A stretch of DNA of 64,000 bases from contig LBYP01000005.1 in NCBI GenBank assembly GCA_000996245.1, forward strand, positions 10,305 to 74,304, given 5' to 3'. Positions 244 through 60,204 of the stretch are shown one piece after another (position 1 is the stretch's first letter; each line of letters begins with the position of its first letter). The position numbers and the translations under genes were made by a program. The notes under the pieces were generated by a model. It was given only the letters and a program-made list of their open reading frames with translations. It made no database searches and was not told the DNA's origin. Source of the DNA: Parcubacteria group bacterium GW2011_GWA2_40_23 (lineage in GTDB: Bacteria > Patescibacteriota > Patescibacteriia > UBA11705 > JABHMO01).

Positions 244-375
244 TATGACTTATCTTACAAAGAAATAGGGTAAATGACAACTTGACGAAAAAAAATAACA
301 AGGGTAAGCTTATATGATTTGCTATGTGTGTAGCAAAGTGTTCGTTGAGGGACAACCCCAAGGCTGGAGGTGTGC

Positions 376-1894
376 GATGCTGAACTCGGTTCGGAACTAC
401 TTCAAGGACTTCGGTCAGCTCTTCCAACTGCCGCGCGAGTTCTGGACGATCCAGGGGCTGAACTTCGTCTACTGCGCCTTCTACTTCACCTTCGTGACGA
501 TGAGCACCCTGCACCTGAGCCAGGACGTGGGCTTCAGCGACGAAGGCGCCGGACTCCTGTTCGGTGTCTTCATGTTCGGCACGGCCATCATCCAGATCGT
601 CCTCGGTCCGGTCATGGACATCCTGGGCTTCCGCAAGACGCCCCTGCTGGCTGCGGCCATCATCACGGTCGGCATGCTCGGCATCGGCCTCGTCCCCGTT
701 ACGCTCGGCGCCACGGATCAGGCGCGTACGCTCATGGTGCTGTTCTACATTATCGCCATGGTCGGCAACGGCCTCATGTTCCCGGTTCTCACGGCTGGCG
801 TGAAGCGCTACAGCAACTCCGAGACGCGCGGTGCAGGCTTCAACATGTGGTACCTGACCATGAACGTCGGCGCGATGCTGACCTTCCTGATCGACTTCAT
901 GCGCAAGCCCCTCGAGGACAAGGCCACCACCGAACAGCTCGCGATCTTCCGCGATGCCGGTGGCAACGTCAACATCATTTGGTACCTGGTCGCACTGCTG
1001 ATCCTCTCGGGTCTCATCGTCTTCTTCTTCCTCAAGAAGGAAGACCAGTTCCCCGAGTTCAACGCTACCGCTGAAGATCTGGCGAAGGCCAAGGAACCCA
1101 AGCCCAAGCAGCCCTTCGGCCAGACGATGAAGGAAATCTGGGCGGACAAGGGCTTCCGCAAGGTGCTCGCGCTCCTGTTCTTCACGATCCCGGCGCACAT
1201 CCCCTTCGTGGCCATTTTCGTGATCTTTCCCAAGTACTACACGCGCGTGATCGCCCCGGACGTGGATCTCGGCTTCCTCGCGTCGATGAACCCGATCATC
1301 ATCATCGCCGGTCTGCTGCTGTTCGCTCCTATCCTAAAACGCTTCAGCGTCTATTGGGTGCTGGTCGTCGGCATGTTCATCGGTGGTGCGTCCTGCCTGG
1401 TTCTCGCGATCCCGCCGAAGTTCCTCGGTTCGGTCTTCGGTGCTTCGGACATCGGCAGCATCTACCTCACCATGGTGGGCATCCAGATCGTGGTCTTCGC
1501 CATGGGCGAGTTTGTGTGGAGCCCGCAGCTCCAGGCCTACGTCGGCGCCATCGCCCCCGAGGGCAAGGAAGGCACCTACATGGGCGTGACTCGCTACCCC
1601 TACACCCTGGCCAAGCTGCTGGGTGGTGCGGTGGGTGGCCTGCTTCTCGCCAAATACTGCCCCGAAGGCGTGAAGCCGCTCATCGAAGCGGGCACGCTGG
1701 CCTACTCCAAGAGCCCAGAGTTCATGAACCTCATTCTGGCCCTGTTCGCGCTCTCGAGCCCGATCGCCCTGCTTCTCATGAAGAAGACGTTCTACGTCGA
1801 GAACAAGGCGACGGACATGGATACCGTTACCTTTTGGGTGCTTGAAAAGGTGTTTTCTTCGCTAAATTATGCTAAGATTTCAATGTTTAACTAG
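376..1894 (+). CDS. MFS-type transporter (12-TM), GC-rich
   Basis: ORF 314..1894, with the likely true start at ATG 376 preceded by GGAGG. Multiple hydrophobic helices and an MFS motif-A-like loop (PVMDILGFRKTPLL). GC-rich body with an AT-rich 3' tail. Confidence 0.65.
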
Positions 1895-18824: not shown

Positions 18825-18882
18825 ATACTGTTAAGCTGTAAAGCTAACAAGTTCATTGAAAACATTAAAAAGGAAACCTACC

Positions 18883-20031
18883 ATGGACCTGAAACACAAA
18901 AACCTCTTTACCGCGAAAGCAGTCCAACACGGCCTTGGGCGCAAGAACACCGGCAAGCTCCAGTCTCTGTGGATCGAACTCCCGCCCTTCTGCAACTTGG
19001 CCTGCACGTACTGCTACGCCTGTGGCGGCGAAAAACGTGACCGCGACAATCTTCTTAACCGCGAAGATTACCTCAACATTCTTAATCAGGCGAAGCAGTT
19101 GGGAGTAGACAGCATCGGAATTCCCGGCGCAGGCGAACCGTTCATCCACGCGAACTTTGAACTCACCATGTGGATTCTGCACGAATGTGCAGCTCGTGAC
19201 ATTTACGTCACGTTGTTCACCACCGGAGAATTCATCACTCGCGAACTGGCGGATGAACTCTTCGAACTGCCAGTTGAGATTATGCTGAAAGGCAATAGTC
19301 TCGACCCAGAAGTGCAAGATCGGTTCGTGAGCAACCCCGATCGAGCAATCCACGGTTACGGTGTGGCCAGAAACCGAGCCATTGAAATCTTGATGGCTGC
19401 AGGGTTCAATGACCCCTCGGCTGCGCAGAAGCACGGTCGGCAAAGTCGCATGGCGCTAGTCACCTCGATCATGACTGACGAAAAAGAAGGCGGTCTGTCC
19501 AACATTGAAGAGGTTGCTCAAATATACCGCTTCTGTCGTGATCGCAACATCATCGCGGACATCGACACCATTCTCAAAAGAGGTCGCGCCCTCGAGTGCG
19601 GACTCTCGTCTGGAGATCGTAATGTCCTGCAGATGTTGATGACACTCCGTCGCATTGCCATCGAAGAATATGGTGATGCCGACACAGTGCTGTCGTCAAC
19701 GTATGTGGAGACGGTATGTGACCGTTTCCATCATCACCTGTACGTTGATGTGTCTGGACGTATTCGACCCTGCATCGGCGCGATGGATGTTGATCTCGGC
19801 AATATCCGATCGACGACCCTGTCAAAGGCCTGGGAATCTCGCGAGCGCCAGATTATCCGCGAACGTCGATACTCTGGTACTTGTGCCAGTTGCGCAAACT
19901 TCCAGGAACATAAGTGCCATTCTTGCCTCGGTCGCAGAACACCAGCAAGTGGAGAAAAATCGCTGACGAACGAAAGCTTGCTACGTGACGGCTGTGTTCA
20001 CACAACAGGATGCATGCTCTATCGGAAATAA
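18883..20031 (+). CDS. radical SAM enzyme with a C-terminal Cys-rich SPASM/twitch-like domain
   Basis: CNLACTYC (CxxxCxxC) near the N-terminus; C-terminal CASCANFQEHKCHSC...C...C cluster. ATG 18883 with AGGAAA RBS. GC-rich. Confidence 0.7.
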   Translation: MDLKHKNLFTAKAVQHGLGRKNTGKLQSLWIELPPFCNLACTYCYACGGEKRDRDNLLNREDYLNILNQAKQLGVDSIGIPGAGEPFIHANFELTMWILHECAARDIYVTLFTTGEFITRELADELFELPVEIMLKGNSLDPEVQDRFVSNPDRAIHGYGVARNRAIEILMAAGFNDPSAAQKHGRQSRMALVTSIMTDEKEGGLSNIEEVAQIYRFCRDRNIIADIDTILKRGRALECGLSSGDRNVLQMLMTLRRIAIEEYGDADTVLSSTYVETVCDRFHHHLYVDVSGRIRPCIGAMDVDLGNIRSTTLSKAWESRERQIIRERRYSGTCASCANFQEHKCHSCLGRRTPASGEKSLTNESLLRDGCVHTTGCMLYRK

Positions 20032-23794: not shown

Positions 23795-24453
23795 ATGAAA
23801 TATCTAATAATCAATGCCGACGACTTTGGCTACAGCGATATATTCAACGCCAAAATTTTGGAGCTGATTGAACGTGGGTTAGTTTCTTCCACAACAGTAA
23901 TGGTAAATTACATTACAACGGAACAAACCAACAAATCAAAAAACTTTCTTCGCTAAAAGAATCACAGAACCTAAGCGTCGGGTTGCATTTAGAGTTTTCC
24001 AATGAAAATTTTAAAGCCGAGATAAAAAAGCAGTACGCCAAGTTCTTATCAATTTTTAGCTTCACACCAAGTCATCTTGATTTACACAAATCAACCTATA
24101 TGCGAAAAGCTTTCCCCATCATTATACGATTTTGTAAAAAAAATCATCTCCCCTGCAGAAACCACAATATTGTTGACGTTGACATGGTCAAAACAAAAAA
24201 CGAAGTCATAAGTGGCACCAAAATGAGTTTTGAAGAATTAAAGAAGACTCTCGAAACTTTCAAGGACAATGAAACCTATGAGATTTTATTTCATCCTGGT
24301 ATGTATGACTTGGCTTGCAAATCTAGCTTAAACAAGGAGCGTGAACTTGATGCCAAAAAAATTGAAGATATCTATCCTATTATAAAAGAAAACAATATCC
24401 AGTTAATCAGCTATCTTAATTTGGCTGCTTTATCCTCAAACAAAAACATATGA
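23795..24453 (+). pseudogene. YdjC/ChbG-like carbohydrate deacetylase gene split by a frameshift in an A-run
   Basis: N-terminus MKYLIINADDFGYS...STTVMVN in one frame; LSVGLHLEF and later sequence (ORF 23983..24453) in another; the break is near the A5 run at about 23938-23943. Confidence 0.5.
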
Positions 24454-30700: not shown

Positions 30701-30726
30701 CATTTTTTCTTCTCCATCTGGCTTAA

Positions 30727-31044: not shown

Positions 31045-31188
31045 TTTCTCCTCCCTAGCAGTTAGATCTCAACCAATTACCCTTATTGTACACAAAACGT
31101 GAGGAAAATCAATCTCCATTAAAACCGCCGCCCCTGCCTGCCGGCAGGCAGGCTCTATGAGGAGCGCGGCAGTATGAACAGATGAACC

Positions 31189-31464: not shown

Positions 31465-31497
31465 CTAGAACCCCTCAGGTAACGAAGTTTCTCTAAG

Positions 31498-36018: not shown

Positions 36019-36537
36019 TCAGTACGTTCTTTTTTCACGATTCTCCGTGGCGATTCGTCCCGTCCCCTTCGGATCGAAGACGTGAACCAGGAGCATGGCC
36101 CACTCGAGGCAAAAGGCCTTGAAGCCAATCCAGTACCGCATTGGGACCAGCTTGACTTTTCGGTGATGCGCCAGACGGAAGGTCACCCAGAACCGCAAGG
36201 CATGTTGCCAGTGCGTCACCACCGTGAAGTGCTGGTCATGATCGCGCTCCACAAGACGTAGAACACCCGAGATATTCTCGTAGGTGTCACGTGACAGTTC
36301 CTCGCACAAGATCTTGTTGGCATGAACGCCTTGTTCATTCAACCAAGAACGCATGAGCAAGCTAGACGCGATAGTCTGGGTATCAGCCGGCAGGTAAATC
36401 CCGCCCATGACAACGATGGCATCGTACTTTCCGCTCTGCCACAAGGACAAAGCACGCATGAGCCGCTTCTCCGTCATCATGCCGTCCAAGCGATTCTTCG
36501 CTACAACCTCGCAACTGGGAACGAGCAAATAACGCAT
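36019..36537 (-). CDS. DUF218 (YdcF/SanA-like) protein, GC-rich
   Basis: AIVVMGG ... TSL ... VTHWQHALR pattern. Confidence 0.5.
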   Translation of the reverse strand: MRYLLVPSCEVVAKNRLDGMMTEKRLMRALSLWQSGKYDAIVVMGGIYLPADTQTIASSLLMRSWLNEQGVHANKILCEELSRDTYENISGVLRLVERDHDQHFTVVTHWQHALRFWVTFRLAHHRKVKLVPMRYWIGFKAFCLEWAMLLVHVFDPKGTGRIATENREKRTY

Positions 36538-38458: not shown

Positions 38459-38571
38459 TCTTATTCTCAATGTGGTTGATCATTTCGATCTGCGGACTCT
38501 CGACATTATCATTATAACAATAATTTGTAAACAATTCTTTCTTCATTATTTGTTATTCAAAATTCTATATT

Positions 38572-38612
38572 TTTGAAAAAAATTCTCCCCCCAGCTGCAT
38601 GCAGCTGGGGGG
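38572..38612 (-). terminator. rho-independent terminator (perfect 13-bp palindrome)
   Basis: ccccccagctgcatgcagctgggggg with a T-run on the minus strand. Confidence 0.65.
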
Positions 38613-38620
38613 AGTCGAAC

Positions 38621-39505: not shown

Positions 39506-39551
39506 GAAGCACCCCAAAACAGTTGATCTGTCCGCCCTTTGCGAACCATAA

Positions 39552-39648: not shown

Positions 39649-40473
39649 TCAAAGACTTTGTTCAAACGGGTTTTGCTTCGTAAAATCCGGCACAAAGCAA
39701 TCCGTTGCATCCAAATCCTGCGTCCAACCATTTAGCATTCCTTTTTCCGTCAAATATGTGAAGATTTTGTGTACCTCTTCCTCGTTATTCGTTCTTCGTA
39801 ATTCGTTATTCTCTGTACTCTTATAAATTGGAGCATATTGCGCCATTAAACTCACATAAATTTTCTTATTGATTGAAGATAAAATGTCGATTGCACATAA
39901 ACTACTTTCAGTTTGTCCTGGAAGAATTAAATGTCTGACAATTAAACCGGATTTGGCAATTCCATTTTCGTCGAGAATAAGTTCTGGACGTATTTCATTT
40001 AAATATTTAATTGCTTCTGTCGCAATATCAGTATAATTATGAACGCCGGAATATTTTTGGCCGAGTTCATTGAAACCGTATTTAAAATCAGGTAAAAAAA
40101 TGTCGACAACGTCAGAAACATTTTTTAACACCTCAACATTTTCATAACCATTCGAGTTCCAGACAATCGGGATCGTCAGCCCTTTCTTTTTGGCTTTTTT
40201 AATCGCTGGAACTATCGTCTGCCACCAAATCGTCGGTGTGACGAGGTTGATATTGACTGCATTCTGTTTTTGTAAGTCGATCATTATGTCGACGAGCTCA
40301 TCTTCAGAATAATCTTTCCCTAAATTTTCTTGAGAGATTTGATAATTCTGGCAATAACAGCATTTCAAATTACATTTACTAAAAAAAATGGTGCCGGAGC
40401 CTTGCGACTCGTCACCAACTAACGGTGGTTCTTCACCAAAATGTTTGCCGTACCAGGCAATGCGGACTGACAT
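39649..40473 (-). CDS. radical SAM protein (PFL-activase-like)
   Basis: CNLKCCYCQN CxxxCxxC motif. Confidence 0.65.
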   Translation of the reverse strand: MSVRIAWYGKHFGEEPPLVGDESQGSGTIFFSKCNLKCCYCQNYQISQENLGKDYSEDELVDIMIDLQKQNAVNINLVTPTIWWQTIVPAIKKAKKKGLTIPIVWNSNGYENVEVLKNVSDVVDIFLPDFKYGFNELGQKYSGVHNYTDIATEAIKYLNEIRPELILDENGIAKSGLIVRHLILPGQTESSLCAIDILSSINKKIYVSLMAQYAPIYKSTENNELRRTNNEEEVHKIFTYLTEKGMLNGWTQDLDATDCFVPDFTKQNPFEQSL

Positions 40474-41862: not shown

Positions 41863-41871
41863 GGATTTAGG

Positions 41872-41911
41872 GAAAAAAACACCCCCGCACCACAGATGAC
41901 TGGGTGCGGGG
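41872..41911 (-). terminator. rho-independent terminator
   Basis: ccccgcacc...ggtgcgggg with a T-run on the minus strand. Confidence 0.6.
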
Positions 41912-41952
41912 TAAACCCAACTCATTGTCGAACGAGCGGGGCGTTATGGCTA

Positions 41953-42108
41953 TCACCAGCGGGAACTGAACTCGTTGGTGTCGTCGTAGCCGAAGTCCGG
42001 GGAGAGATCCTTGAACAAAAGGTGTAAGCCGATGGCCAGACCGATCAGTGGGATGCACAGAAGAACAGTACAGATGCCGAGGACGCAGTCGATTTTCTGT
42101 CTCAGCAT
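41953..42108 (-). CDS. small single-TM protein (51 aa), GC-rich
   Basis: Not in the ORF track (<60 aa); GGAAGAGAGGTG RBS; sequence MLRQKIDCVLGICTVLLCIPLIGLAIGLHLLF. Confidence 0.35.
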   Translation of the reverse strand: MLRQKIDCVLGICTVLLCIPLIGLAIGLHLLFKDLSPDFGYDDTNEFSSRW

Positions 42109-42599
42109 GAACACCTCTCTTCCTGTTTTTCGACCTCACGGGGATGTCGAATCGAGTAGAGGTAGAGGCCGAAAGCCAGGATGTCGGCGACGAACATGAT
42201 CCGAATGAAGTAGATGATCAGGAAGTCGAAGGCTTTGATCCAGGGGGACGAGTCTTCGAACACGAGGAAGGGGAGGATCTGCATGTCGATGGTTTTTACC
42301 ACGAAACAGAGACCGTAGCAGAGACTTGCTCCGAGAAAGGAGATTGTAACGCGAGTTGTCAGCTGCTTACCTTTACGGATCTCATCTCGCAGGTCGTCGG
42401 AAAACACCCAGAAGGAGAAGACCGCAACCATCGCCATCCAGAAAGTGGACGTGATGGATCCTTGATCTTCGGGAAAGACGCCAGGTTCGGTGTTCCAGAT
42501 GAAGACGCCGAGGAAGAGGATGATCGTGACGATTACGTGGGGAATCCAGAAGAGCAAGTCGAACACGAGCTTGAACCGCACGGGCGTGGGCTGTGCCAT
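42102..42599 (-). CDS. multi-TM membrane protein (165 aa), GC-rich
   Basis: Start MAQPTPVRF with GGAGGAAA RBS; 4-5 hydrophobic helices. Confidence 0.5.
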   Translation of the reverse strand: MAQPTPVRFKLVFDLLFWIPHVIVTIILFLGVFIWNTEPGVFPEDQGSITSTFWMAMVAVFSFWVFSDDLRDEIRKGKQLTTRVTISFLGASLCYGLCFVVKTIDMQILPFLVFEDSSPWIKAFDFLIIYFIRIMFVADILAFGLYLYSIRHPREVEKQEERCSC

Positions 42600-42631
42600 G
42601 GTTTCCTCCAATCCGAGTTTGTTGTTATTTC

Positions 42632-42877
42632 CTAGGCTGCACGGCGCGGCGGTGTGTGGTCATCCCCGTCTGGAAGTTCTTGCAGACGTTTTTTCAGTCT
42701 GTTCTCGGGCAGGTGGTGGTACATGAGTCCACAATCTTGGCAGTAGTTCTGGGTGGGGCCAAGTTCTGTCGGACGTTTTCCGCCGTAGATCGGTGCGCCG
42801 ACCGGAGTGCGTGTGATTTCTCTCACGATCGGGCCACCACAGACAACACACTTTGCATCGGTCACTTCGGCTGCCAT
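42632..42877 (-). CDS. small zinc-ribbon protein (81 aa), GC-rich
   Basis: MAAEVTDAKCVVCGG ... CQDCG; N-terminal pattern like the 70-aa protein at 30491..30700. Confidence 0.45.
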   Translation of the reverse strand: MAAEVTDAKCVVCGGPIVREITRTPVGAPIYGGKRPTELGPTQNYCQDCGLMYHHLPENRLKKRLQELPDGDDHTPPRRAA

Positions 42878-42958
42878 TGTTTTGCCTCAACGCAGTTACA
42901 TAGTTGATTAGAGATTAACATTTGGCGTGGTTTTGTCAATTCCATCCGATTTGCGATA

Positions 42959-48923: not shown

Positions 48924-49673
48924 TTAGGTTTTTATGCAATTTTTGTACATGAATTTCCACCAAATGCGGTAGCTATCAGCGAGTTTTTTATCACGAAGGA
49001 CAAATATAGTAACGTCATCTGAAATACTTTTATAGTTCAATCCAGTAAAGGTTACGACATAGTCACCAAAAATGTCAGCTGCAGAAATAGTGGAAAATTC
49101 TTTAGGCATAAAACGATTATTGTTTCCCATTAATACGAGTTCTCCCGGTGGAGTTTTTTCTTGAACTTCAATATCAAAAATATGATAAAAATTTATTTTT
49201 TTCTTTTTTGCTTCAACTAAAAATTTTGTCAAAAAAGTATTGATGCGCGGGTCTAGCCAACCAAGCTTGGCGCCGATGAAGTAAACATCTTTGCCCTCGT
49301 GCAAAATATCGCGCATGTAATTCTTGAAACCTTCAAGACCTCTATAGATGCAGGCTTCTTGCGGGCTTTCTTTTTCCTCAAAGGTTCTTTTTAATTCTGG
49401 AAGTATTAGTCGAAGCTCGGCTTCTTTTTCTTTCAATAATTCCAATAATTTCCCAGGATCTACTGGCGCATATTTATTTTCCCCTTTAGAAATAATGGGG
49501 AAGATCAGCCCCTTATCTACGAGCCGACCAACAGTGTCATAGACGTTCCGACGATGTATTTTGGAATGGGTTGAAATGGTCCCAACTCCGGCTTCTTTGA
49601 GGGCTAAAAGGGATTCATAAATTTTGGCTTCGTTGAGTGACAAGCCGATGTTTTGGAGTGTTTGAAGTAGCAT
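48924..49673 (-). CDS. TrmB-family transcriptional regulator
   Basis: IGLSLNEAKIYESLLALKEAGVGTISTHSKIHRRNVYDTV. Confidence 0.6.
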   Translation of the reverse strand: MLLQTLQNIGLSLNEAKIYESLLALKEAGVGTISTHSKIHRRNVYDTVGRLVDKGLIFPIISKGENKYAPVDPGKLLELLKEKEAELRLILPELKRTFEEKESPQEACIYRGLEGFKNYMRDILHEGKDVYFIGAKLGWLDPRINTFLTKFLVEAKKKKINFYHIFDIEVQEKTPPGELVLMGNNNRFMPKEFSTISAADIFGDYVVTFTGLNYKSISDDVTIFVLRDKKLADSYRIWWKFMYKNCIKT

Positions 49674-49816: not shown

Positions 49817-51349
49817 ATGAACTCTATTTCACAAAACCTAGGTTATTGGCTTCTCGCTGTTTATGGTATTTTTATGGTAGTTATTACGTACTTCTTTGCT
49901 CGCTGGAAAAAGTACCGTTCCATTCAAGGTTTTTTAGTGGCAGGTCGTAATGTTAAGTGGTGGTTGGGTGCAACAAGTATTGCTGCTTCATGGATCTGGG
50001 CACCAGCATTATTTGTATCCGTACAAGTTTCCTATCAACAAGGCTTACCTGGAATTTTCTGGTTTACCTTTCCCAATATAATTGCTTTATTGCTTTTTAT
50101 TTGGTTAGCACCAAAAATTCGCGCTAAGATGCCTTATGGTTATACTCTGCCACAATATATCAAGGAACGTTTACAAAGCGATAAAGTACATAAGATCTAT
50201 TTGTTCCCTTACTTTTTTTATCAATTGATGGCTGTGGCTGTTCAATTATTTGCTGGTGGCGGTCTAATTTCACTTTTGACAGGAATTCCATTTGTAACAG
50301 CGATGATCATTATGTCAGTTATCGTTTTGATATATTCATTCATTTCTGGTCTTGAATCTTCTATAGTCACTGATTTTATTCAATTCCTGTTAATTGTCAT
50401 TGGTGTAGCCATTGTTGTGCCATGGACAATTATGTCTGCTGGTGGTTGGAGCACTATTAGCGCTGGATTAGGTGGTGTCAGTGGTCATTTCAGAAACATC
50501 TTTGATCCTGGCGTGGCTTTCTCGTTTGGCATTGTAACTGCCATTGGTCTTATTTCTGGAGCAATATCTGATCAGCAGTATTGGCAACGAGCCTTTGCTA
50601 TTAAAAAAGAAAATCTGGTGAAATCTTTCGTGTTTGGTGCCATTATGTTCGGTATAGTTCCGATTGCACTCTCAAGTCTTGGTTTTTTGGCTGCTAATAC
50701 AGGGTTAGGAATTTCTTTACCAGCAGGAGTAGATGTATCGATGATTGGTATTGCTACTGTCAGCCATTATTTACCGGTTGGTGCTATTGCTTTGTTCGTA
50801 ATTATGCTTTTGAGTGCCTTATTTTCTACTCTTGATTCTGGTCTTAATGCAGCGAGTTCACTTTTTGTAACTGATGTTGTGAAATATACAGACAAAGAAA
50901 AAGCTGTCTTAAGAAAAACAGAGGAAGATCAAGTTTTAAATTCTGATGAAGAAAAAATTCAAAAACATTTGGATGATAGGGGTGTGCGCAATTCACGCTG
51001 GGCCATGTTTGGAATTACGGCTCTTGGTTTTGCAGTGGCTTTAGCAGCAAATTATATTCCCGGTTTTGGCTTGAAGCATTTATGATGGATCTTTAATACC
51101 ATTGCCGCTTGTGTAGTTGTGCCGACTGTCCTCAGTTTGTATTGGAAGAGGTTAGATGCTAAAGGCGTATTTTGGGGTGTGTTAACATCTTTTGTTATCG
51201 GCGTACCGCTCTTCATTTATGGGAATATCGTTGATAAGCCGGTTTGGATAGTCGGGGCTTCACTCTTCATTGTCGCTGTGAGTACAATTATTTGTTTGAT
51301 TTTTCCCAAGAAAGTTAACGCAAGTTCGTTCTACTACGATATAGAGTAG
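49817..51349 (+). pseudogene. sodium:solute symporter (SSS) gene interrupted by a single in-frame TGA at 51083..51085
   Basis: ORFs 49817..51085 and 51119..51349 are in the same frame; the sequence reads GFGLKHL[TGA]WIFNTIAACVVVPTVL without a break. Confidence 0.55.
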
Positions 51350-51418
51350 AGTCGATTCAAAAAATATCAGCAGTTGCTGATATTTTTTTTGGAGATAAAA
51401 TGTGATAAATGTTGGAAC

Positions 51419-51973
51419 TTATTTAACTGGGAAACCATTCATTAAATTTTGAAAATCAGTAAATTTAATGTCGGCTTGTGGAATAAATTTTGAATTATCG
51501 ACAGTCCACTTTCGACATCGATATTCAGCTGTATCTGATAAAGCTGCCTGGCTCGCATTGGCGGCTTCAAGATCAGTTCCGACCGTAGTGTCGACCTGCA
51601 TTTTTATGGCTGGGTAGGTCTTGTTGTCACTCCAAGAATACATTTGGTCATTATCAAAGATCATAGTAGATTTCATGTCCTTGTTTGACAGAGGATCCTT
51701 TACCATTGTTTCCGCCCTAAATTTTCTATTTTTTCCGTCAACATAAAAATCGCCCGAGCTTGTTACACCCTTTTCGGCCTCATAGGAGAAAGTGCAATGA
51801 AACGATTTTCCCAAGGCAATCATTTTGTCTGGGCTTGTTTTGAAGAGTTCCTCTTCTTCTGCTTTTTGTGTTTCTTGGTTTAAATTGTTGACAACATTAC
51901 TCTTTTTTTCACAACCGAGAACAATGAAAAGAAGGGGCAAAATAAGTAGCAGGAGATACAATCTTGATTTCAT
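51419..51973 (-). CDS. lipoprotein, hypothetical
   Basis: Signal peptide with lipobox LLFIVLGC. Confidence 0.55.
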   Translation of the reverse strand: MKSRLYLLLLILPLLFIVLGCEKKSNVVNNLNQETQKAEEEELFKTSPDKMIALGKSFHCTFSYEAEKGVTSSGDFYVDGKNRKFRAETMVKDPLSNKDMKSTMIFDNDQMYSWSDNKTYPAIKMQVDTTVGTDLEAANASQAALSDTAEYRCRKWTVDNSKFIPQADIKFTDFQNLMNGFPVK

Positions 51974-52129
51974 ATTTATAAAGTTAATTATCTATAAATA
52001 TTATAGCACTGAGCAATAGAATTGATTATGGGCAGTTGTGCATAATAGCTATTAAAGAAATGCAAAAAAACACCGCAAATGGTTCTTTTTCATGATCAAG
52101 AGTATTCAAGATGAAAACAATATTGTTTG

Positions 52130-52285
52130 CTATTTATAACCTTTTGCTTGAGTTTTGAACATCTGGGCATATTTGCCATTCTTTTTTAATAATTCTTGAT
52201 GCGAACCGGCTTCTATTATTCTTCCATCGTCAATGACAACAATTTTACCAGCATTACGGACGGTCGAAAACCGATGAGAAACCAT
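52130..52285 (-). pseudogene. remnant of an ABC-transporter ATPase C-terminus (51 aa fragment)
   Basis: MVSHRFSTVRNAGKIVVIDDGRIIEAGSHQELLKKNGKYAQMF matches the ABC H-loop and C-terminal tail only. Confidence 0.45.
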
Positions 52286-52390
52286 TATTAATTTGTATTT
52301 ATAGAGTTATTATATCAGGGGCTTTATCCCCCGACTAATATGCTAAAATAAAAAATACCACGCTAAAGGTGATATTGTATTTGGTTTTTG

Positions 52391-52678
52391 CTAATTTTTT
52401 GATAGAGGTTCAATTATTTTTTTTAGGATATCTTGTTTAGGAAAGCTTAAATATAAATTTTGTAAGAAAATATGTTGTTTATTCTCGGTTGTCTCTTCCC
52501 ACGGATTAAATTTTAAATGTTTCTCTAATTCAACAGCAGGATTAATAGTTTTGTTTCGCAAATCAACTTTTATACACTTAACTTCAGGTTTGGTTTCTTT
52601 TCCGATACGTTTTAAATCACCATTATTGATGATAAGTATTAAGTCTCCAAGTTTTGCAATTATATATATTTCATTCAT
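52391..52678 (-). CDS. hypothetical protein (95 aa)
   Basis: Lies immediately downstream of the disrupted gene. Confidence 0.35.
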   Translation of the reverse strand: MNEIYIIAKLGDLILIINNGDLKRIGKETKPEVKCIKVDLRNKTINPAVELEKHLKFNPWEETTENKQHIFLQNLYLSFPKQDILKKIIEPLSKN

Positions 52679-52683
52679 ATTTT

Positions 52684-53579
52684 TTAGAATTCAATCAATT
52701 GTATGGTTGATTCTGGGTGTTGTTGTTTGTAGTTATCAAGCAGTTCATGAACCGCTTCAATATCTTTTGAGCTAAGACCATTGTGAGGTGAAATATTAAT
52801 AGATTCCACGTCATCCAGTGTCAGCTGCCCATAATATTGGGCTTCTGTATATAATTCTCCCCAATTGGTGACGCTGGACCCAGTGGTGCTTTCCAAAAAC
52901 GTTTTGACTGAACCTCTAAGACCAAAACTTGTAAAGTGTGGTTTTGAAGCGGGCGTAGGTGGAAAGTTATAGTTGCCTTGTTTAAAGCCACCGATCGTTT
53001 TATTTTTATATTAATACTCCCATAACCGCTGGTGCTGGCTGGAGGTGGTATTCTTCCCTGCGGATTAATAATGCCATGTTTATCGTCGGAAAAATAACCG
53101 TAAATTGGTCTATTTTCCTTGTCTCTGTCGGGGGAATAGTCATAATTGAACATCCGATTTTCTCTTTCTGCTCTGACACTCGGATCAAGGGCACCTTGGC
53201 TGGTTCCAGTTTCAAATTGACTTTTCCAACGTCCACCAGACATCATTACTCTTTTTAGCTCATCCAGCGTCGTTGCGCGAAAGAATTCGTCTTTTCCTAC
53301 CATTTGTTCTACTTTTGTTTGCAATCTAGCTTTTAGGTCTTCAACGGAAATACCCAAATCAGCAGCGGTTTTTTCATATTGTGGTCAATTTTTTTCCTCT
53401 AGGCGTATCATATTTGCTCGAATTTTAGCAGTGATGCCAGCAGGACCATCAAGCTTCATCTCTTCATCCCAACCATTAAAATAATTAATGGTTACAATTG
53501 AGCCGAAATCTCCTTTTTCGGTTCTTGTTTCGTGTCCGTTTTGTTTTGGTTCTATCGAGACTATAACTTCATGTTTCAT
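52684..53579 (-). pseudogene. hypothetical gene disrupted by an in-frame TGA (about 53385) and a frameshift in an A/T run (about 52990)
   Basis: ORFs 53385..53579 and 52821..53357 are in the same frame (LEEKN[TGA]PQYEK); the reading frame then switches into ORF 52684..52896. Confidence 0.45.
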
Positions 53580-53637
53580 ATATGCAATTTTTTTATGAAT
53601 ACATTATATCATAAGTTCTATTTTATTATGGGGTATT

Positions 53638-53663
53638 AACAAAAAACAGCTAAAATTAGCTGT
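53638..53663 (-). terminator. rho-independent terminator ending the tRNA transcription unit
   Basis: acagcta...tagctgt with a T-run on the minus strand immediately after tRNA-Gly. Confidence 0.55.
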
Positions 53664-53670
53664 GCTTTGT

Positions 53671-53746
53671 TGGAGCGGGTAAGGGGAGTCGAACCCCTAT
53701 CTTCAGCTTGGAAAGCTGTAATAATACCGCTATACTATACCCGCCC
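53671..53746 (-). tRNA. tRNA-Gly (UCC)
   Basis: Hand-folded; anticodon loop TTTCCAA; CCA encoded. Confidence 0.8.
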
Positions 53747-53915
53747 TGTAGTACATGCTCCGCATGACTACAGGGCAAGCCCTTTATCAAGCGAAACTTT
53801 AGTACGTTTCATCGCATGACTACAGGGCAAGCCCTTTATCAAGCGAAGCTTTAGTACATTTTTCCGCGTGATTGCAGGACCAAGCCCAACGATCCGCGAA
53901 GCTGTAATTCAAGTC
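53747..53915 (-). repeat. three tandem copies of the tRNA leader element (GGGCTTGCCC + hairpin with GCGAAGC-type apex)
   Basis: Successive copies are progressively more degenerate. Confidence 0.6.
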
Positions 53916-53956
53916 CTGTTATTATACCAAGATTTATTGCTTTTTCAAGACCTGTT

Positions 53957-54967
53957 CTAATTTACTTCAATATCAATATGCTTAACCCCAGGGAATTTTT
54001 TATGCAGTTTTTGCTCAAGTTCATCAATTCTTCGGCCCATTAGGCGAGCCATCTGGTCACTATAGTCAACACAGAAGCGTAAGAACTCATCATAGTTGTT
54101 ATTGATTATCTCAAACTCTTCATGCAAATCTCCGTCTTTAATAATATCCTTCAATAAGGAATAGCCATTAAATTCAATTTCGCATTTGACGCGATAAATT
54201 CCATAATCTAAAACTATTGATTTAAAGTCGAGTACTTTTTCGATCCCAGGATCAGCTTCTAGCGTTTCAATAATTTCATTGCGCATATCTTCGGGCATGG
54301 CTTTGCCAATTAGAAATTCCCGATTCTTATTTATTAAGAAAAGAGCCATAATGCCCAGCATGACACCGATGACAATTGAACCGATTGCATCGAAAAAATA
54401 TAAGCCAGTAAAATGAGTCAAAAGAATACTCACAAACGCAACTATAGTGCCAAGGATCGCAAGCCCGTCTTCATATAAAACCGCCAAAGATGAGGGGTCG
54501 CCATCTCTTAAAATATGTTTTAAATGTTTTTGGGGATTGTGTTTTTTTAATTCATACCAAGCAATTCCGAAGGTTGAAAATTCTACAACGAAGGCAATGA
54601 GCAACACTAAGTAAGTCAGAAAGCCGGTGTGAATTGCACGCTCATGGACCAAAGCCATGATACCACTATATACGGTGACACCGGAACCAATAAAGAAAAC
54701 GCCGCAAGCTGAAATTAAAGCTCATAAAAATCGTTCTCGTCCGTACCCATAAATAAAAGATTCACTCGGTTTTTTGACCGAGCGTTTAATTCCAATAAAA
54801 AGTAAAATTTGATTTGAAGAATCGGCCAAGCTGTGAATCGCTTCAGAAAACATGGTTGCTGAGCCGGAGATGAAGGCACTAATGAATTTCAAAGTCATTA
54901 CTACGAGGTTGCCCAAAAGGGCAGCAACAACAGGCAGGTAGCCTACAGACTTTTGTGTATTTATCAT
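53957..54967 (-). pseudogene. cation diffusion facilitator (CDF) transporter gene interrupted by an in-frame TGA (about 54722)
   Basis: ORFs 54722..54967 and 53957..54658 are in the same frame: GYGRERFL[TGA]ALISACGVFFIG; the HSLAD motif is present. Confidence 0.55.
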
Positions 54968-54981
54968 TTTGTAAAATTTGT

Positions 54982-55058
54982 TGGTGGGTCCGCTGGGATT
55001 TGAACCCAGGACGCCCAGCTTAAAAGGCTGGCGCTCTAACCAACTGAGCTACGAACCC
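54982..55058 (-). tRNA. tRNA-Lys (UUU)
   Basis: Anticodon loop CTTTTAA; GGGTTCGTAGCTCAGTTGG. Confidence 0.85.
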
Positions 55059-55546
55059 TAAAGTACATGCTTCGCATGACTTTAGGGCAAGCCCTAGAAT
55101 CAAACGAAGTTGTTATTGGTTGTTCTTCCTAAAGTATGATCTTAACATTAATCTAATTGCTCTTTTACCGTCCGTTGTTTTGAAATAAGCCTCTCTTCTT
55201 AGGGCATCATCACGACTTAGATGTGCCTCGTAATAAATAACATTCCAAGGGCCTCGATTTTTTGTTGATGGGACAAGGCCTGCATTGTGCTTTAATGATC
55301 TGTGATAAACATCATCTGGAGTAAAGCCAGCATAAAGGTTTTTAGTTTTTTGACCTTCTAAAACATACGTATAATACATATGTTTTAAGAATAATACCAG
55401 CTATTGCAAAGAACAAATCTAGGGGGGGGTATCACTGGGCGGTTCACCCTGAAGTATAAATTTCATTTAACCTCATGGCTAGCCATGAAGTTACGTGATA
55501 ATCATGTCTGGTTTACCATAAAGTCATGTGATTAGCATGTACTTTA

Positions 55547-55623
55547 TGGTCGGGGTGGTGGGACTCGAACCCACGGCCTCTTGGTCCCAAACCAAGCACT
55601 CTAGCCAACTGAGCCACACCCCG
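55547..55623 (-). tRNA. tRNA-Pro (UGG)
   Basis: Anticodon loop TTTGGGA. Confidence 0.85.
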
Positions 55624-55724
55624 AAGTACAGGCTTCGCCTGACTTCGGGGTAAACCCCGCATCAAGCAAAGCTAGATTTTACAATGAATGGCTTGCCACA
55701 AACTGACACGGAGTGTCTAATTTG

Positions 55725-55800
55725 TGGTGCCGAGCCCCAGAATTGAACTGGGGACGCAAGGATTTTCAGTCCTTCGCTCTACCACTGAGCTAGCTCGGCC
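55725..55800 (-). tRNA. tRNA-Phe (GAA)
   Basis: Anticodon loop CTGAAAA. Confidence 0.85.
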
Positions 55801-55958
55801 CGGTAGTACATGCTTCGCATGACTACCGGGCAAGCCCTGTAATAAAGCGAAGTTTAGTACGTTTTTTCGCATGACTGCAGTGTAACCTCAGCAATCAAGC
55901 GAAGTAACAGTATTATGATGGATGGCTTGCCATGAAGTCACACGTAGTATGTACTTCA

Positions 55959-56036
55959 TGGTGGGCGCGGGGGGAATCGAACCTCCGACCTCAGCATTAT
56001 CAGTGCTGCGCTCTAACCAACTGAGCTACGCGCCCC
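55959..56036 (-). tRNA. tRNA-Ile (GAU)
   Basis: Anticodon loop CTGATAA. Confidence 0.85.
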
Positions 56037-56136
56037 GAAGTACAAGCTTCGCTTGACTTCGGGGCAAGCCCTTCAGCAAGGAAGCAGTTATCAATAAATG
56101 GCTTGCCATAAAGTCATGCGATTAGCATGTACTTTA

Positions 56137-56213
56137 TGGTGGGTGGCATAGGATTCGAACCTACGACCCCTTCGGTGTAAACGAAGTGCTCTAACCAGCT
56201 GAGCTAGCCACCC
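56137..56213 (-). tRNA. tRNA-Val (UAC)
   Basis: Anticodon loop TTTACAC. Confidence 0.85.
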
Positions 56214-56594
56214 AGAAGTACAGGCTTTGCCTGACTTCTGGGTAAACCCATAGTCAAACAAAGTTTTTGTACATGGTTCGTCTGACTTCTGGCTTGCCCT
56301 GTGGCGCAATGCCACGGGGGTAAACCCATAATCAAGCGTAGAGTAATAAACAAAACTTAGCTTAGCTAACTAAGCCATCGTGCGCTCAGTATAGCAGGAA
56401 TCTATAGCTATTTCAAGTTATTTTACTTTTAAATAACAGCAAAAGTATAGCAAAAAAAAAGAGACTAATCAATAGTCCTTTTTTTGTTAACTTCAGAATA
56501 GTGGTACGAATCATTTGTCTCCTGCATAGAGAATAAAATACAAGAGCAGGATCGACCTAAGACGATACAGATAAACTGTTCGTCATAGCCCCTT

Positions 56595-58066
56595 AGAAAG
56601 GAGTTGTTTCCATCCACAGCTTCCGCTACGGATGCCTTGTTACGACTTAGCCCCTATCATCGGTCCTACCTTCTGCCGTCCTACAACGACATTCGGGCAT
56701 TACCGACTCTCTTGACTTGACGGGCGGTGTGTACAAGACTCGAGAACGTATTCACCGTGACGTGCTGATCCACGGTTACTAGCGATTCCAGCTTCATGAG
56801 GTCGAGTTTCAGACCTCAATCCGAACTGAGACCAATTTTGGTGGGATTTGCTCCATCTTACGATTTGGCGTCCCTTTGTATTGGCCATTGTAGCATGTGT
56901 GTTGCCCAAGGTGTAAGAGCCATGCTGATTTGACGTCATCCCCACCTTCCTCCTTGTTATACAAGGCAGTTTTCTAATAAAGTATAAATTAGAATGAGGG
57001 TTGCGCTCGTTATCGGACTTAACCGTACACCTCACGGCACGAGCTGACGGCAACCATGCAGCACCTGTCTAGCACCCTCGTAGGCGGCCCTAGTTTCTTA
57101 GGGCTTGCAGCTAGATTTCAAACCTTGGTAAGGTTTTTCGCTTATCGTCGAATTAAACCACGTGCTCCACCGCTTGTGCGAGTCCCCGTCAATTCCTTTG
57201 AGTTTTAATCTTGCGATCGTACTCCCCAGGCGGGATATTTAACGCGTTAGCTTTTTGTGACGACACTGAGAGGGTCGATACTCCCAATGTCTAATATCCA
57301 TAGTTTACGGCGTGGACTACGCGGGTATCTAATCCGCTTCGCTCCCCACGCTTTCGTGCCTTAGTGTCAGTATTGTCCTAGTAAGCTGCCTTCGCATTTG
57401 GTGTTCCTGCCGATATTAACGGATTTAACCCCTACACCGGCAATTCCGCTTACCTCTTCCAAACTCAAGTCTAACAGTATCAGTGGCGATTCCCCGGTTG
57501 AGCCGAAGGATTTAACCACTGACTTAATAGACCACCTACGCACGCTTTACGCCCAATAAATCCGGGTAACGCTTGGGGCACTCGTATTACCGCTGCTGCT
57601 GGCACGAGTTTAGCAGCCCCTTATTCTTCTGGTACAGTCATTAGTTCTTCCCAGAAAAAAGATTTTTACACCCCGAAGGGTTTCATCAACCACGCGGCGT
57701 CGCTCCTTCACACTTTCGTGCATTGAGGAAAATTCTCGACTGCAGCCTCCCGTAGGAGTCTGGGCAGTGTCTCAGTCCCAGTGAGGCGGGTCGTGCTCTC
57801 ACACCCGCTACCCGTCGTAGCCTTGGTAAGCTTTTACCTTACCAACTAGCTGATAGGCCATAGGCCACTCTCTGACCGATAAATCTTTACTGCACCGACT
57901 CATGCCAGTGCAGACCATCGTGTATTAGCTCAGATTTCTCCGAGTTGTTCACGAGTCAGAGGTATGTTACCAATGTGTTACTCACCCGTTTGCCACTCCT
58001 ATTCTATCCGAAGAAGGAATAGGCGTTCGACTTGCATGCCTTAGACACTGGTGATAGCAAATCTAC
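56595..58066 (-). rRNA. 16S ribosomal RNA
   Basis: Reverse-complement contains GTGCCAGCAGCCGCGGTAATAC and AAGTCGTAACAAGG...CTCCTTTCT. 3' end carries anti-SD ACUCCUU; 5' region about 25 nt shorter than the E. coli layout; ends approximate. Confidence 0.85.
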
Positions 58067-58134
58067 CTTTAAAATCATTGAATTGACAAATGATTCCTTA
58101 CCACTATTCTGATGTCAACGATCATGTGGTTAAA

Positions 58135-58236: not shown

Positions 58237-59118
58237 ATGTTCGAACTCAAAAATTTGATCCAAAAAGACAAGCCGCCAGCTCAAATTGAGGCTGAAAAAG
58301 CTAATCCGGAAATTAAGGCAGAATACCACAAGCAGGTAATGGAAGTGATACTCGAGCGAGCCGAAAAGATCCTCTGGGAAAATCCAAATGCTGGTTGGCC
58401 TGATTTAGTTCAGCAAATTCTCGAAGCAGCGATCGAGGTCGGTGCAAAGCCAAGTGCAGTTCAACGTAAATGGGTCGAGGAAACCGTTCAGCAATGGATT
58501 GATGATGTGGGGAAGGAAATAACTGTGATAGAAGCTTTGGCAGATGAAGCTTTTAACGCCAATGTTTATCCGTCTGGTCCAAACGATAAAGCTTGGGATG
58601 ACGAAAAAGCGAAAGAGCAACAACGTTTCGATGATAACCAGGAACCCTGGTTGTTGTTTGAGACTGATAGATGGATTCAGCAAGCCTTGTTACATAAATT
58701 ACCAACAATTAGTAAGGAGCCGAAAGACTTTGTTTTCCGTTCTGACCATCCGCCGATGATTGTGATTCAGTGTTTGGAGAAGTCAGATTATGAGGCTCTT
58801 TATAAATTTAAGAGTGTCGATAATGATCGTTGGAAATCAACTGATGGGTTTGTCCCAATGGATTCTCTTCTTCTGGATTCAACGCACCCGATTTATAGTA
58901 ATTTAAAAGGGTGTATTACCATTGTTCGATCTGCAAGCGAAGACACTAAACTACATGAGGAACAGCATCTTTTTTATGAACGTTATGTTGAGACTAAAAA
59001 AACAAATAATTTACGAGCCCTTGATGAACTAGCTGCATATTTAAAAGAGGGTCGCTATGATTTCACAACCAAAGGAATTTTTAGTCATATTTCTGAGGAG
59101 TCAGTGGTGGGTCTTTAA
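58237..59118 (+). CDS. hypothetical protein (293 aa)
   Basis: Acidic ORF. Confidence 0.5.
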   Translation: MFELKNLIQKDKPPAQIEAEKANPEIKAEYHKQVMEVILERAEKILWENPNAGWPDLVQQILEAAIEVGAKPSAVQRKWVEETVQQWIDDVGKEITVIEALADEAFNANVYPSGPNDKAWDDEKAKEQQRFDDNQEPWLLFETDRWIQQALLHKLPTISKEPKDFVFRSDHPPMIVIQCLEKSDYEALYKFKSVDNDRWKSTDGFVPMDSLLLDSTHPIYSNLKGCITIVRSASEDTKLHEEQHLFYERYVETKKTNNLRALDELAAYLKEGRYDFTTKGIFSHISEESVVGL

Positions 59119-59169
59119 AAACAAATTTATGATCCAGATTGGCAGCAAGTAGTAAATCAAATTTTACGT

Positions 59170-60204
59170 TTGAAATATTTTGGCATCCCAGCTGAATCAT
59201 TATGGTCTCGGGTTGCGGCCTGTGAGGATCTAAAAGAATTGGCCCGACGTTTAGAAAAAGTAGAAGTGGATCCAACGCACTTTGATTTTGATGTAGCAAC
59301 TCAAAATGGAAGCTCTCTGACTTGGGTGCTTGAAAATTATAGAATGTTACCCGAGGCAGTTCATGAGAAAATAAAGCCGAAGGAAGCTGAGGAACAAGTG
59401 AAGCAGGATTTTGATTTTTTACAGCTAGCTGAAATGAATGATGCCCTGGATGCCATGGATAAGAATGAAAATGCATTGTCATCATTTGGTTATGATTTAG
59501 GTTTATTGACAAATATTTGGCGTAAAATAGTTGACGAAGCTTATGCTCTTGTTGAGGCCTTTCCTGAGCTGAAAGAGAAGGAGTGGGGAAGAAAATCATT
59601 TGCAAATCCGGATCAAAAAGTATCAGTTATTGATAGTGATTTATTGATAAGATTGAGAACTGCAGCTGATTATTTTAGTACTATTATGCCTCCAGTTCCC
59701 TTGCCTGAATTTTTAGGTACTGATACCTGGGGAGAAACAATAACCAAAATGGAAGAATTTAGAGACAAGCTTGACTGGGCTTCTTCTACCCAAGACAAGA
59801 TTAATCAATTAGAATGGTCTTTCCGTGCTTCTCAAAATAAAATCCCTCGGTTAATTGAAAAACATTTTGGTGTTAAGGGTTTTAACAAAATCTCTTTTAG
59901 CGAAGCAGCTTCTTTGATAGAGGAGCTTATTTCTGCAATCAGGTGGAGAACCGCGGAAACAGAAAACATGAAAAGAGTTTCTGGGGTTTTGGAAGAACAG
60001 ATGAAGAGCGACTGGGACGATGAAGGTGAAATATTTAATGATAGTCAAGATTCATCTTTGATGGATCCGTTTGAAGCTCATCAATATTTTAAAGAAGAGT
60101 TGGCTAAACAACAGCAATATTTGGCCGAGCATTATCCTGAATCATTGTTAAATAATCCTGATGAATTGGCGGCAATTGTGGCTGCAAGATTCCCAAATAA
60201 TTAA
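59170..60204 (+). CDS. hypothetical protein (344 aa)
   Basis: Acidic ORF. Confidence 0.5.
   Translation: MKYFGIPAESLWSRVAACEDLKELARRLEKVEVDPTHFDFDVATQNGSSLTWVLENYRMLPEAVHEKIKPKEAEEQVKQDFDFLQLAEMNDALDAMDKNENALSSFGYDLGLLTNIWRKIVDEAYALVEAFPELKEKEWGRKSFANPDQKVSVIDSDLLIRLRTAADYFSTIMPPVPLPEFLGTDTWGETITKMEEFRDKLDWASSTQDKINQLEWSFRASQNKIPRLIEKHFGVKGFNKISFSEAASLIEELISAIRWRTAETENMKRVSGVLEEQMKSDWDDEGEIFNDSQDSSLMDPFEAHQYFKEELAKQQQYLAEHYPESLLNNPDELAAIVAARFPNN

Follow-up and report, generated by a model that had tools for sequence, protein, structure and literature searches.

Gene content of the window and the disrupted genes

The window, by which we refer to the whole 64,000-nucleotide stretch of DNA that was analysed, contains a 5-kb zone in which genes for an SSS-family symporter, a DUF3626-like protein and a CDF metal-efflux transporter are each interrupted by a TGA codon (Table 1). 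In all three genes, the reading frame remains open on both sides of the TGA and conserved residues flank it, and this part of the original prediction was borne out by homologue alignments. The three genes had also been described as otherwise intact, which holds for the SSS and CDF genes, with a single lesion each, but not for the DUF3626-like gene, which contains several lesions.

Table 1. Positions of the genes and RNA discussed in the text, numbered from the first nucleotide of the window.
Feature	Position	Strand	Description
YdjC-like gene	23796..24453	+	frameshift near 23,937-23,957, by A6 run 23937-23942
Radical-SAM gene	39649..40473	-	control; natural stop TGA
TrmB-family regulator (PF01978)	48924..49673	-	intact; conserved divergent neighbour of the SSS gene
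SSS-family symporter (PF00474)	49817..51349	+	510 codons; TGA 51083-51085 = codon 423
184-aa lipoprotein-like gene	51419..51973	-	intact; 76.7% nucleotide identity to L003 12089-12699
ABC exporter remnant	52130..52291	-	last 53 codons (H-loop to C-terminus)
95-aa ORF	52391..52678	-	intact; conserved downstream partner of the DUF3626-like gene (101 aa in relatives)
DUF3626-like pseudogene	52684..53579	-	several lesions; TGA 53385-53387
tRNA-Gly	53671..53744	-	anticodon UCC (not UCA)
CDF metal-efflux transporter (PF01545)	53957..54967	-	336 codons; TGA 54722-54724 = codon 82
Conserved hypothetical gene	58237..60204	+	655 codons; split by in-frame TAA 59116-59118

The TGA of the SSS gene takes the place of the first Trp in the invariant motif HLWWIFN, where Trp was found in 119 of 119 homologues, and the corresponding codon is TGG in three relatives (L009, L010 and L011), all with an intact syntenic SSS gene. 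The pairing of the TrmB and SSS genes is present in these relatives and in L012. The SSS gene is rich in Trp (17 codons) and shows 15 lineage-specific changes, none at a conserved site and fewer than the intact relatives have; comparison with the relatives thus revealed no excess of substitutions and no further sign of decay. The TGA of the CDF gene stands for the invariant Trp of the motif RERFLWALISA, which was found in all 14 homologues and is encoded by TGG in the syntenic intact orthologues of the sister genome (L003), L007 and L009. The dN/dS of this gene against the sister is 0.05, and the amino acid changes are divided into 9 derived in the window and 11 derived in the sister, so neither relaxed constraint nor secondary decay was found by these two measures. 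Homologues of the CDF protein in the PDB are too distant to indicate the residue at the TGA site. Reinitiation beyond the two TGAs was considered and set aside; starting at the next in-frame start of the SSS gene (GTG 51119) or at ATG codon 104 of the CDF gene would remove transmembrane segments.

The TGA site of the DUF3626-like gene is variable among homologues and mostly occupied by Gln (Q13/A2/R2/H2/E1). A frameshift had been placed in an A/T run near 52990, but the frame there still aligns with the homologues; the real lesion is an out-of-frame deletion of approximately 28-31 nt at approximately 52955-52964, which removed the conserved DSLxxxxW motif between TFH and PPTPA. Additionally, approximately 100 N-terminal residues are missing relative to homologues of about 400 aa. 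Multiple lesions of this kind are what relaxed selection would leave, and the CDF and SSS genes do not show them. The window carries part of a foreign three-gene cassette, which in relatives consists of a gene of 373-385 aa, the DUF3626-like gene and a 101-aa gene. The first of these, located upstream of the DUF3626-like gene in relatives, is absent here, and the last is represented by the 95-aa ORF, which shows 57-61% identity to its counterparts; in four relatives (L031 to L034), this partner follows the DUF3626-like gene at a distance of 2-4 nt.

The cassette part occupies the spot where the sister has a 263-aa gene and the remainder of an ABC exporter. In the ABC exporter remnant, 48 of 53 residues match residues 553-605 of the intact 605-aa TMD-NBD exporter of the sister, which matches both ABC_membrane and ABC_tran, and the nucleotide identity to L003 11932-12093 is 79.6%. 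The 51-aa ORF at 52130..52285 had correctly been recognised as a C-terminal ABC fragment, and we found that the homology reaches 52291. The orthologue of the lipoprotein-like gene lies immediately downstream of the ABC exporter in the sister genome. The tract from tRNA-Gly to the SSS gene is different in every relative examined (gene orders of L003, L007 and L009), and it is therefore a hotspot of insertion or replacement. A permissive-threshold Rfam search of the zone revealed no additional RNA.

Gene breakage is neither limited to the 5-kb zone nor confined to TGA. The claim that all internal stops are TGA is correct inside the zone, but beyond it the conserved hypothetical gene is split by a TAA, where the sister orthologue, an uninterrupted gene of 647 aa, has ATG. 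The same split into 293 and 344 aa was also called in three other loci (L035, L036 and L037). In the YdjC-like gene, the 53 N-terminal codons and the 156 C-terminal codons lie in different frames, and the spliced protein matches PF04794 with 92 bits in two stretches. The DNA of this gene is 100% identical in L039, L040 and L041, and the 53-aa fragment was called in L039 and L041 but not in L040. The main value of these results lies in annotation; the deposited split ORFs of 422 aa, 81 + 233 aa, 64 + 178 aa, 51 aa and 293 + 344 aa are pieces of five genes that have been disrupted.

Identity of the disrupted alleles across assemblies

We compared the disrupted alleles with contigs from JGI (3300025309, 3300025081 and 3300025308), ENA (ERZ28564302, ERZ28563708 and ERZ27254807, with k141 contig names) and Logan (SRR3309152). 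The lesion alleles matched at 100% identity in 12-16 contigs, which came from several samples and assemblers (16 contigs for the SSS allele), and the CDF sequence and the DUF3626-like fragments were likewise identical in independent assemblies. In the Logan assembly SRR29904083, the same gene fragments were called, a comparison at the level of gene calls and not of DNA. Two scans of a metagenome contig collection that does not include the Rifle samples, made for TGG or TGA alleles of this strain, yielded no match in the first and the sister contig alone in the second. The matching contigs contain zero SNPs over more than 30 kb. Since the alleles are identical across samples and assemblers and SNPs are absent, the mutations are real and the sampled population is clonal. 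One proposal of the original prediction, that TGG had become TGA through sequencing or assembly error, can therefore be rejected, and the SSS and CDF sites, two of the three, show a genuine change from TGG to TGA.

Origin of the lesions

Rather than recoding of TGA, the disrupted genes likely reflect that a clonal population has recently acquired pseudogenes, most of them in the variable tract next to tRNA-Gly. The mixture of lesions in the window (TGA, TAA, frameshift, deletion and remnant) favours this reading, and the localised gene decay proposed earlier agrees with the intact syntenic CDF, ABC exporter and SSS genes of the relatives, with the multiple lesions of the DUF3626-like gene and with the reduction of the ABC gene to 53 codons. 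The decay is not confined to the zone, however, as the TAA at 59116 and the frameshift of the YdjC-like gene at approximately 23,940 lie beyond it. In the mechanism that we propose, the zone is a variable stretch next to the 16S/tRNA cluster of a groundwater bacterium of the candidate phyla (Patescibacteria); it holds accessory genes, mostly for transporters, and one clonal lineage has recently lost several of them. As evident from the alignments, two independent G-to-A transitions converted the TGG of an invariant Trp to TGA in SSS (W423) and CDF (W82). The cassette's DUF3626-like gene is dead, with its TGA, its out-of-frame deletion and the absence of its 5' part, and the ABC exporter is reduced to its final 53 codons. 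The truncated products, comprising 422 of 510 aa for SSS and 81 of 336 aa for CDF, are probably non-functional. Drift or hitch-hiking may have fixed the lesions in a clonal symbiont with a small population, and the events may be too recent for secondary decay to have built up; in a population that contains no SNPs, too little time may have passed for decay to show. The origin of the two G-to-A changes in DNA breaks or deaminase activity was also considered, with two sites being too few for a test.

Two findings do not sit easily with recent pseudogenisation. The SSS and CDF genes show no relaxed constraint, which fits very recent loss and retained function equally. Moreover, under neutral nonsense models, the probability that all three stops are TGA is 1-2.5%, and the probability that the hits in SSS and CDF are both TGG-to-TGA changes is 0.1-2.3%, or about 6% if only GC-to-AT transitions occur; the CDF gene contains only 2 Trp codons. 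When the TAA case is counted as well, the probability of 3 TGAs among 4 stops is about 5%, by arithmetic from the same models. The predominance of TGG-to-TGA changes may result from G-to-A transitions dominating mutation in an AT-rich genome and from the Trp-rich SSS gene.

The genes described here resemble the ordinary recent pseudogenes in accessory regions of reduced, host-dependent bacteria in their intact syntenic orthologues, their mixed lesions and their location in a variable tract beside a tRNA gene. In contrast to such pseudogenes, the two transporter genes each have a single lesion and no secondary decay, the sampled population is entirely clonal, and the events would be unusually fresh. 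With approximately 1 gene in 10 of the window broken in a strictly clonal population, the locus adds modestly to the evidence that such episymbionts are still losing genes under weak selection.

Decoding of UGA and alternative explanations

An unlikely alternative, though one with several points in its favour, is that the code is standard and tRNA-Trp(CCA) misreads UGA at low frequency, such that some wild-type SSS and CDF protein is made. A change from TGG to UGA would then be the least harmful nonsense change, and selection would preferentially let such alleles persist. Both TGAs lie on an invariant Trp in otherwise pristine genes without signs of relaxed constraint, the alleles are fixed in all samples, and the joint neutral probability is only 0.1-6%. 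There is also a precedent in Providencia siddallii, where strains with intact prfB and trnW(CCA) contain a few UGG-to-UGA sites that are thought to depend on readthrough (PMC10540940). These sites, in the strains PSOF and PSLP, have been proposed to mark the beginning of code 4 (PMC10540940), and the present case is similar in that a handful of UGG-to-UGA changes occur in otherwise intact genes while UGA is still a stop. The Providencia sites, however, are conserved between diverged species and affect genes that are likely essential, whereas those described here lie in accessory transporters of one clone, beside dead genes, and are shared with no relative, the sister and the others having TGG.

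Further observations argue against low-level readthrough. The adjoining genes are unambiguously dead, and a gene split by TAA lies 4 kb away. U and G occupy the fourth base position, and both are strong termination contexts in E. coli. No stimulatory structure was found 3' of the TGAs, where the folds of the downstream 80 nt were not more stable than those of shuffled sequences (z = +0.37, +0.57 and -0.69). A population without SNPs has had too little time for decay to appear in any case, and the pattern itself was chosen after the fact. It is quite improbable, in our estimation, that the TGG-to-UGA alleles are functional hypomorphs and that the lineage stands at the first step to capture of UGA by Trp with RF2 still present. 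If this were true, capture of UGA by Trp would have begun a second time and independently in Patescibacteria, the phylum in which UGA was also recoded to Gly, and the present case would stand at a far earlier stage; leaky readthrough would then let the very beginning of stop-codon capture be seen in nature.

A change of the genetic code, in which UGA has been or is being reassigned to Trp (code 4) or Gly (code 25), is very improbable. Both reassignments are known in the same phylum (PMC13092985, PMC13293708 and PMC8629427), two of the three TGAs lie at invariant Trp positions, and TGA is the rarest natural stop, as the original prediction had noted: the 48 backbone genes end in TAA (37), TAG (7) or TGA (4, two of them in ATGA overlaps). 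We found, however, that UGA is an ordinary working stop in this genome. In particular, homologues of the radical-SAM gene end at the same place as its TGA (for example, query 3-271 of 274 against 7-273 of 280 and 6-273 of 274), which indicates that UGA terminates translation in this genome, and readthrough would append 115 codons that hold three more TGAs. A Pfam-supported DUF218 gene likewise ends in TGA. Trp in the backbone genes is encoded by 155 TGG codons, against 2 in-frame TGAs at Trp sites (2/157), and reading TGA as sense merged no other real gene anywhere in the 64 kb. The tRNA with a UCA anticodon that the original prediction had suggested looking for was found neither among the eight tRNAs of the window nor in the other loci scanned, and the same searches revealed no tRNA-Trp able to read UGA, whether through UCA or through CCA with a 4-bp anticodon stem; the window itself contains neither prfB nor the tRNA-Trp gene of this genome.

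Comparison with the known recoding systems leads to the same view, and the earlier suggestion of TGA recoding to Gly or Trp is not supported. UGA-to-Trp decoding (table 4) occurs in Mycoplasmatales, in insect endosymbionts and in the Patescibacteriota family JAKLIH01, which has 0% UGA stops and no RF2 (PMC13092985). The present genome is similar to these systems in having UGA at invariant Trp sites in two genes and in being AT-rich, and it belongs to the same phylum as JAKLIH01. It differs from them in that UGA still ends 4 of 48 genes, one end being verified by homologues, in its third TGA off Trp, in its low share of TGA at Trp sites and in its lack of tRNA(UCA) in the loci scanned. UGA-to-Gly decoding (table 25) occurs in Gracilibacteria and Absconditabacteria, which the present genome resembles in phylum and in the rarity of UGA stops; in contrast, the three sites align with W, W and Q/A/R/H/E and not with Gly, and the anticodon of the tRNA-Gly in the zone is UCC. 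In-frame TGA at Trp sites in a genome of the candidate phyla should be read as recoding only after the natural stops have been checked. Selenocysteine insertion, which likewise involves UGA in an open frame, does not fit the Trp, Trp and Gln-like positions, which are not Cys/Sec, or the absence of a SECIS hairpin in the downstream 80 nt. We also rejected the idea that the TGAs came from a prophage or a foreign recoded island, since the CDF and SSS genes are inherited vertically, keep their synteny and have TGG in relatives.

Sequencing, consensus or assembly errors in a metagenome bin of 14x coverage are effectively refuted as the source of the TGAs and the frameshift by the identical lesions in contigs of other samples and other assemblers. 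The GenBank contig does have at least one local assembly defect, however: compared with L001 and the sister L003, it lacks 116 nt at 58047/58048, including the 5' end of the 16S gene. Separately, the 99.74% identity at 58-63 kb, which looked like strain variation, reflects a single breakpoint at approximately 63,330 and not SNPs.

In-frame TGA codons and the residues expected at them

As originally noted, three genes in the 5-kb zone at 49817-54967 were each found to carry an in-frame TGA. The CDF transporter site was occupied by Trp in 14 of 14 aligned homologues ('RERFLWALISA') and encoded by TGG in the DNA of three fetched relatives; the SSS symporter site was Trp in 119 of 119 homologues ('HLWWIFN') and likewise TGG in three relatives. 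The site in the DUF3626-like gene was variable among homologues (Q 13, A 2, R 2, H 2 and E 1). None of the three sites aligned with Gly, which gives no support to TGA-to-Gly recoding, raised earlier as one possibility. The UGA contexts were UUA-UGA-U, UUA-UGA-G and AAU-UGA-C, and the predicted folds of the 80 nt after each TGA were no better than those of shuffles. Peptides that would span the TGA sites include HLWWIFNTIAACVVVPTVLSLYWK and FLWALISACGVFFIGSGVTVYSGIMALVHER.

Features of the window and their coordinates
Feature	Coordinates	Strand	Remark
High-GC patches	314-3746, 6796-7925, 13933-14367, 18856-20031, 21143-21875, 30491-31752, 36019-36537, 38186-39517, 41867-42907		
YdjC-like gene	23796..24453	+	frameshift near A6 run 23937-23942
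Radical-SAM gene	39649..40473		TGA stop
SSS symporter, PF00474	49817..51349	+	in-frame TGA 51083-85
51-aa ORF, ABC remnant	52130..52285		
Cassette remnant	52391..53579		
DUF3626-like gene	53579..52684	minus	in-frame TGA 53385-87
CDF transporter, PF01545	54967..53957	minus	in-frame TGA 54722-24
16S rRNA	56597..58090	minus	adjoins zone, with a run of tRNA genes
Conserved hypothetical gene, 655 codons	58237..60204	+	split by in-frame TAA 59116-59118

Under neutral nonsense models, the probability that three of three stops are TGA was 1-2.5%, and the probability that the SSS and CDF hits are both TGG>TGA was 0.1-2.3%, or about 6% with GC>AT transitions only; by our own arithmetic, three TGAs among four stops, with the TAA case counted, gave about 5%. 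These values are suggestive of a TGA/Trp pattern beyond chance, but the pattern was chosen after the fact.

The SSS transporter was unusually conserved, with 65-90% identity to homologues (P0121-P0240) spread over many candidate-phyla bacteria and DPANN archaeal MAGs (Nanoarchaeota, Woesearchaeota); this wide conservation suggests inter-domain transfer.

Gene order and the cassette remnant

The order 16S, tRNA-Val, Ile, Phe, Pro, Lys, CDF, tRNA-Gly was kept in relatives. The sister genome (L003/L004/L005), whose 16S was 99.2% identical to that of the window and whose CDF gene was 87% identical in nucleotides and 93% in amino acids, contained an intact CDF gene, tRNA-Gly, an unrelated 263-aa gene, an intact ABC exporter and a lipoprotein gene, in that order. 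The sister bin belongs to JGI 3300029286 and includes contig Ga0247841_10001064. In another relative (L009), CDF, tRNA-Gly, SSS and TrmB directly adjoined one another, and the TrmB-SSS pair was also found in L010, L011 and L012; a TrmB-family regulator was the partner of the SSS gene in the loci fetched. From these gene orders we infer that CDF and SSS were inherited vertically and that the tract past tRNA-Gly acts as a hotspot of gene replacement.

A cassette remnant has taken the place, in the window, of the 263-aa gene together with 552 codons of the ABC exporter gene. The 51-aa ORF was correctly recognized as an ABC remnant, as 48 of 53 residues matched positions 553-605 of the sister's 605-aa exporter, with protein identity still at 91%. 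Relatives (L031 2863-5630; L034 2838-5539) revealed a conserved cassette of three genes, whose products are of 373-385 aa, of about 400-440 aa (DUF3626-like, ending in '...HPESTIQLIEF') and of 101 aa, the last gene being tightly coupled. In the window, the middle gene was 5'-shortened and doubly broken, and the 95-aa partner, with 57-61% identity to the relatives' small gene, was the sole intact member. The frameshift had been placed in an A/T run near 52990, but the frame there still aligned with homologues (about 350-440 aa); it is instead an out-of-frame deletion of about 28-31 nt at about 52955-52964, which takes out the conserved 'DSLxxxxW' between 'TFH' and 'PPTPA'. The cassette could be a toxin/immunity-like module.

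Origin of the lesions and the reading of UGA

The best explanation of the lesions, and quite a probable one, is pseudogenisation that took place recently in a clonal population and mainly in a variable tract of accessory genes. Localised gene decay, one of the options first proposed, is supported by the disrupted genes of the zone, but a TAA-split gene and a frameshifted YdjC-like gene lie beyond the zone, so that about 6 of about 60 genes are disrupted, 4 of them within 5 kb. The sister orthologue of the TAA-split gene (L003 3384..5327) was an uninterrupted protein of 647 aa with 68% identity and ATG at the TAA codon; the split was also present in other assemblies. The spliced YdjC-like protein matched PF04794 in two stretches, and its 53-aa N-terminal fragment was also called in L039 and L041, loci from other assemblies (L039-L041 DNA, 100% identical). 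No SNPs were found in the sampled population over >30 kb, and the population is clonal. The CDF comparison between window and sister gave dN 0.043, dS 0.84 and dN/dS 0.05, with 9 polarised replacements assigned to the branch of the window and 11 to that of the sister. The SSS gene had 15 private replacements, 0 of them at sites at least 90% conserved; its intact relatives had 20 and 23, of which 6 and 2, respectively, fell at conserved sites. The lesions are either very recent or, in the case of SSS and CDF, tolerated.

In the main rival reading, tRNA-Trp would naturally decode UGA as a near-cognate codon and so supply some wild-type protein, which would let the two Trp>UGA alleles persist. 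Such leaky readthrough has been put forward for strains of Providencia siddallii whose prfB is intact (PMC10540940); however, the readthrough-linked sites there are shared across species, whereas the window alleles are private to one clone, and we consider this reading unlikely.

A change of genetic code is poorly supported. This genome uses UGA as a stop codon: backbone genes ended in TAA (37), TAG (7) or TGA (4), which bears out the claim that TGA is the rarest stop, and two of the four TGA-ending genes ended in ATGA overlaps. When 1.84 billion representative proteins were searched with the product of the radical-SAM gene, homologues ended at the same point as the query (for example, query 3-271 of 274 aligned to 7-273 of 280 and 6-273 of 274), and readthrough of the TGA of this gene would append 115 codons with three further TGAs. 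Together with 155 TGG codons in backbone genes against the two TGAs at Trp sites, these 4 of 48 gene ends argue against recoding. No other real gene merged across TGA read as sense in the 64 kb, no tRNA(UCA) was present in the window or the other fetched loci scanned, and the anticodon of the zone tRNA-Gly was UCC. Reading of UGA as Trp was recently reported for the Patescibacteriota family JAKLIH01, which lacks RF2 and has UGA at 0% of its stops, compared with 4.6-20% in relatives that use the standard code (PMC13092985); at 8%, the window resembles a standard-code genome, unlike JAKLIH01. The window CDF C-terminal fragment (233 aa) was 100% identical to NCBI 'Cation efflux protein [Parcubacteria group bacterium GW2011_GWC2_39_14]', from a candidate-phyla-radiation genome of Rifle groundwater. 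PER_GWC2_39_14, described as a Peregrinibacteria bin (38.5% GC, 21 scaffolds, 1.32 Mb; Wrighton et al. 2016, Table 1, PMC5113843), may be the same bin, and the label matters because Peregrinibacteria are classified beside UGA-to-Gly lineages.

An artefact, including the suggested TGG-to-TGA error, is the least credible reading, since the truncated CDF and SSS products recurred on 12 and 16 contigs, respectively (JGI, ENA and Logan assemblies; several samples), all retrievable loci were 100% identical to the window over the zone, and lesions identical in separate assemblies and samples exclude assembly or sequencing error.

A 16S gap, a point of divergence, GC patches and a tRNA-upstream motif

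At 58047/58048, within the 16S gene, the window was without 116 nt found in L001 (107-222), assembled independently from the same strain, and in the sister (L003 5518-5633); these include the 16S 5' end ('AGAGTTTGATCCTAGCTCAG...'), and the gap probably reflects a local mis-join in the contig as deposited. Contigs L035, L036 and L037 from other assemblies were identical to the window up to about 63,329 and then diverged, ending within about 150 nt; the divergence at about 63,330 marks either a structural variant or a point where an assembly breaks.

Patches of 50-59% GC were observed in this genome of about 37% GC, some of them being Pfam-supported genes for an MFS transporter (314..1894), a radical-SAM/SPASM protein (18856..20031) and DUF218 (36019..36537); no Rfam family matched within them. 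The relative L008 likewise had a patch of 58-60% GC. The patches may have been acquired recently from donors rich in GC.

Each of six tRNA genes at 53742-56263 had a conserved motif of about 55 nt directly upstream (minus strand). This motif, family D2 (64-85% identity), contained an inverted repeat such as CCCTGTAGT...ACTACAGGG and may serve these genes as a common promoter or processing element.
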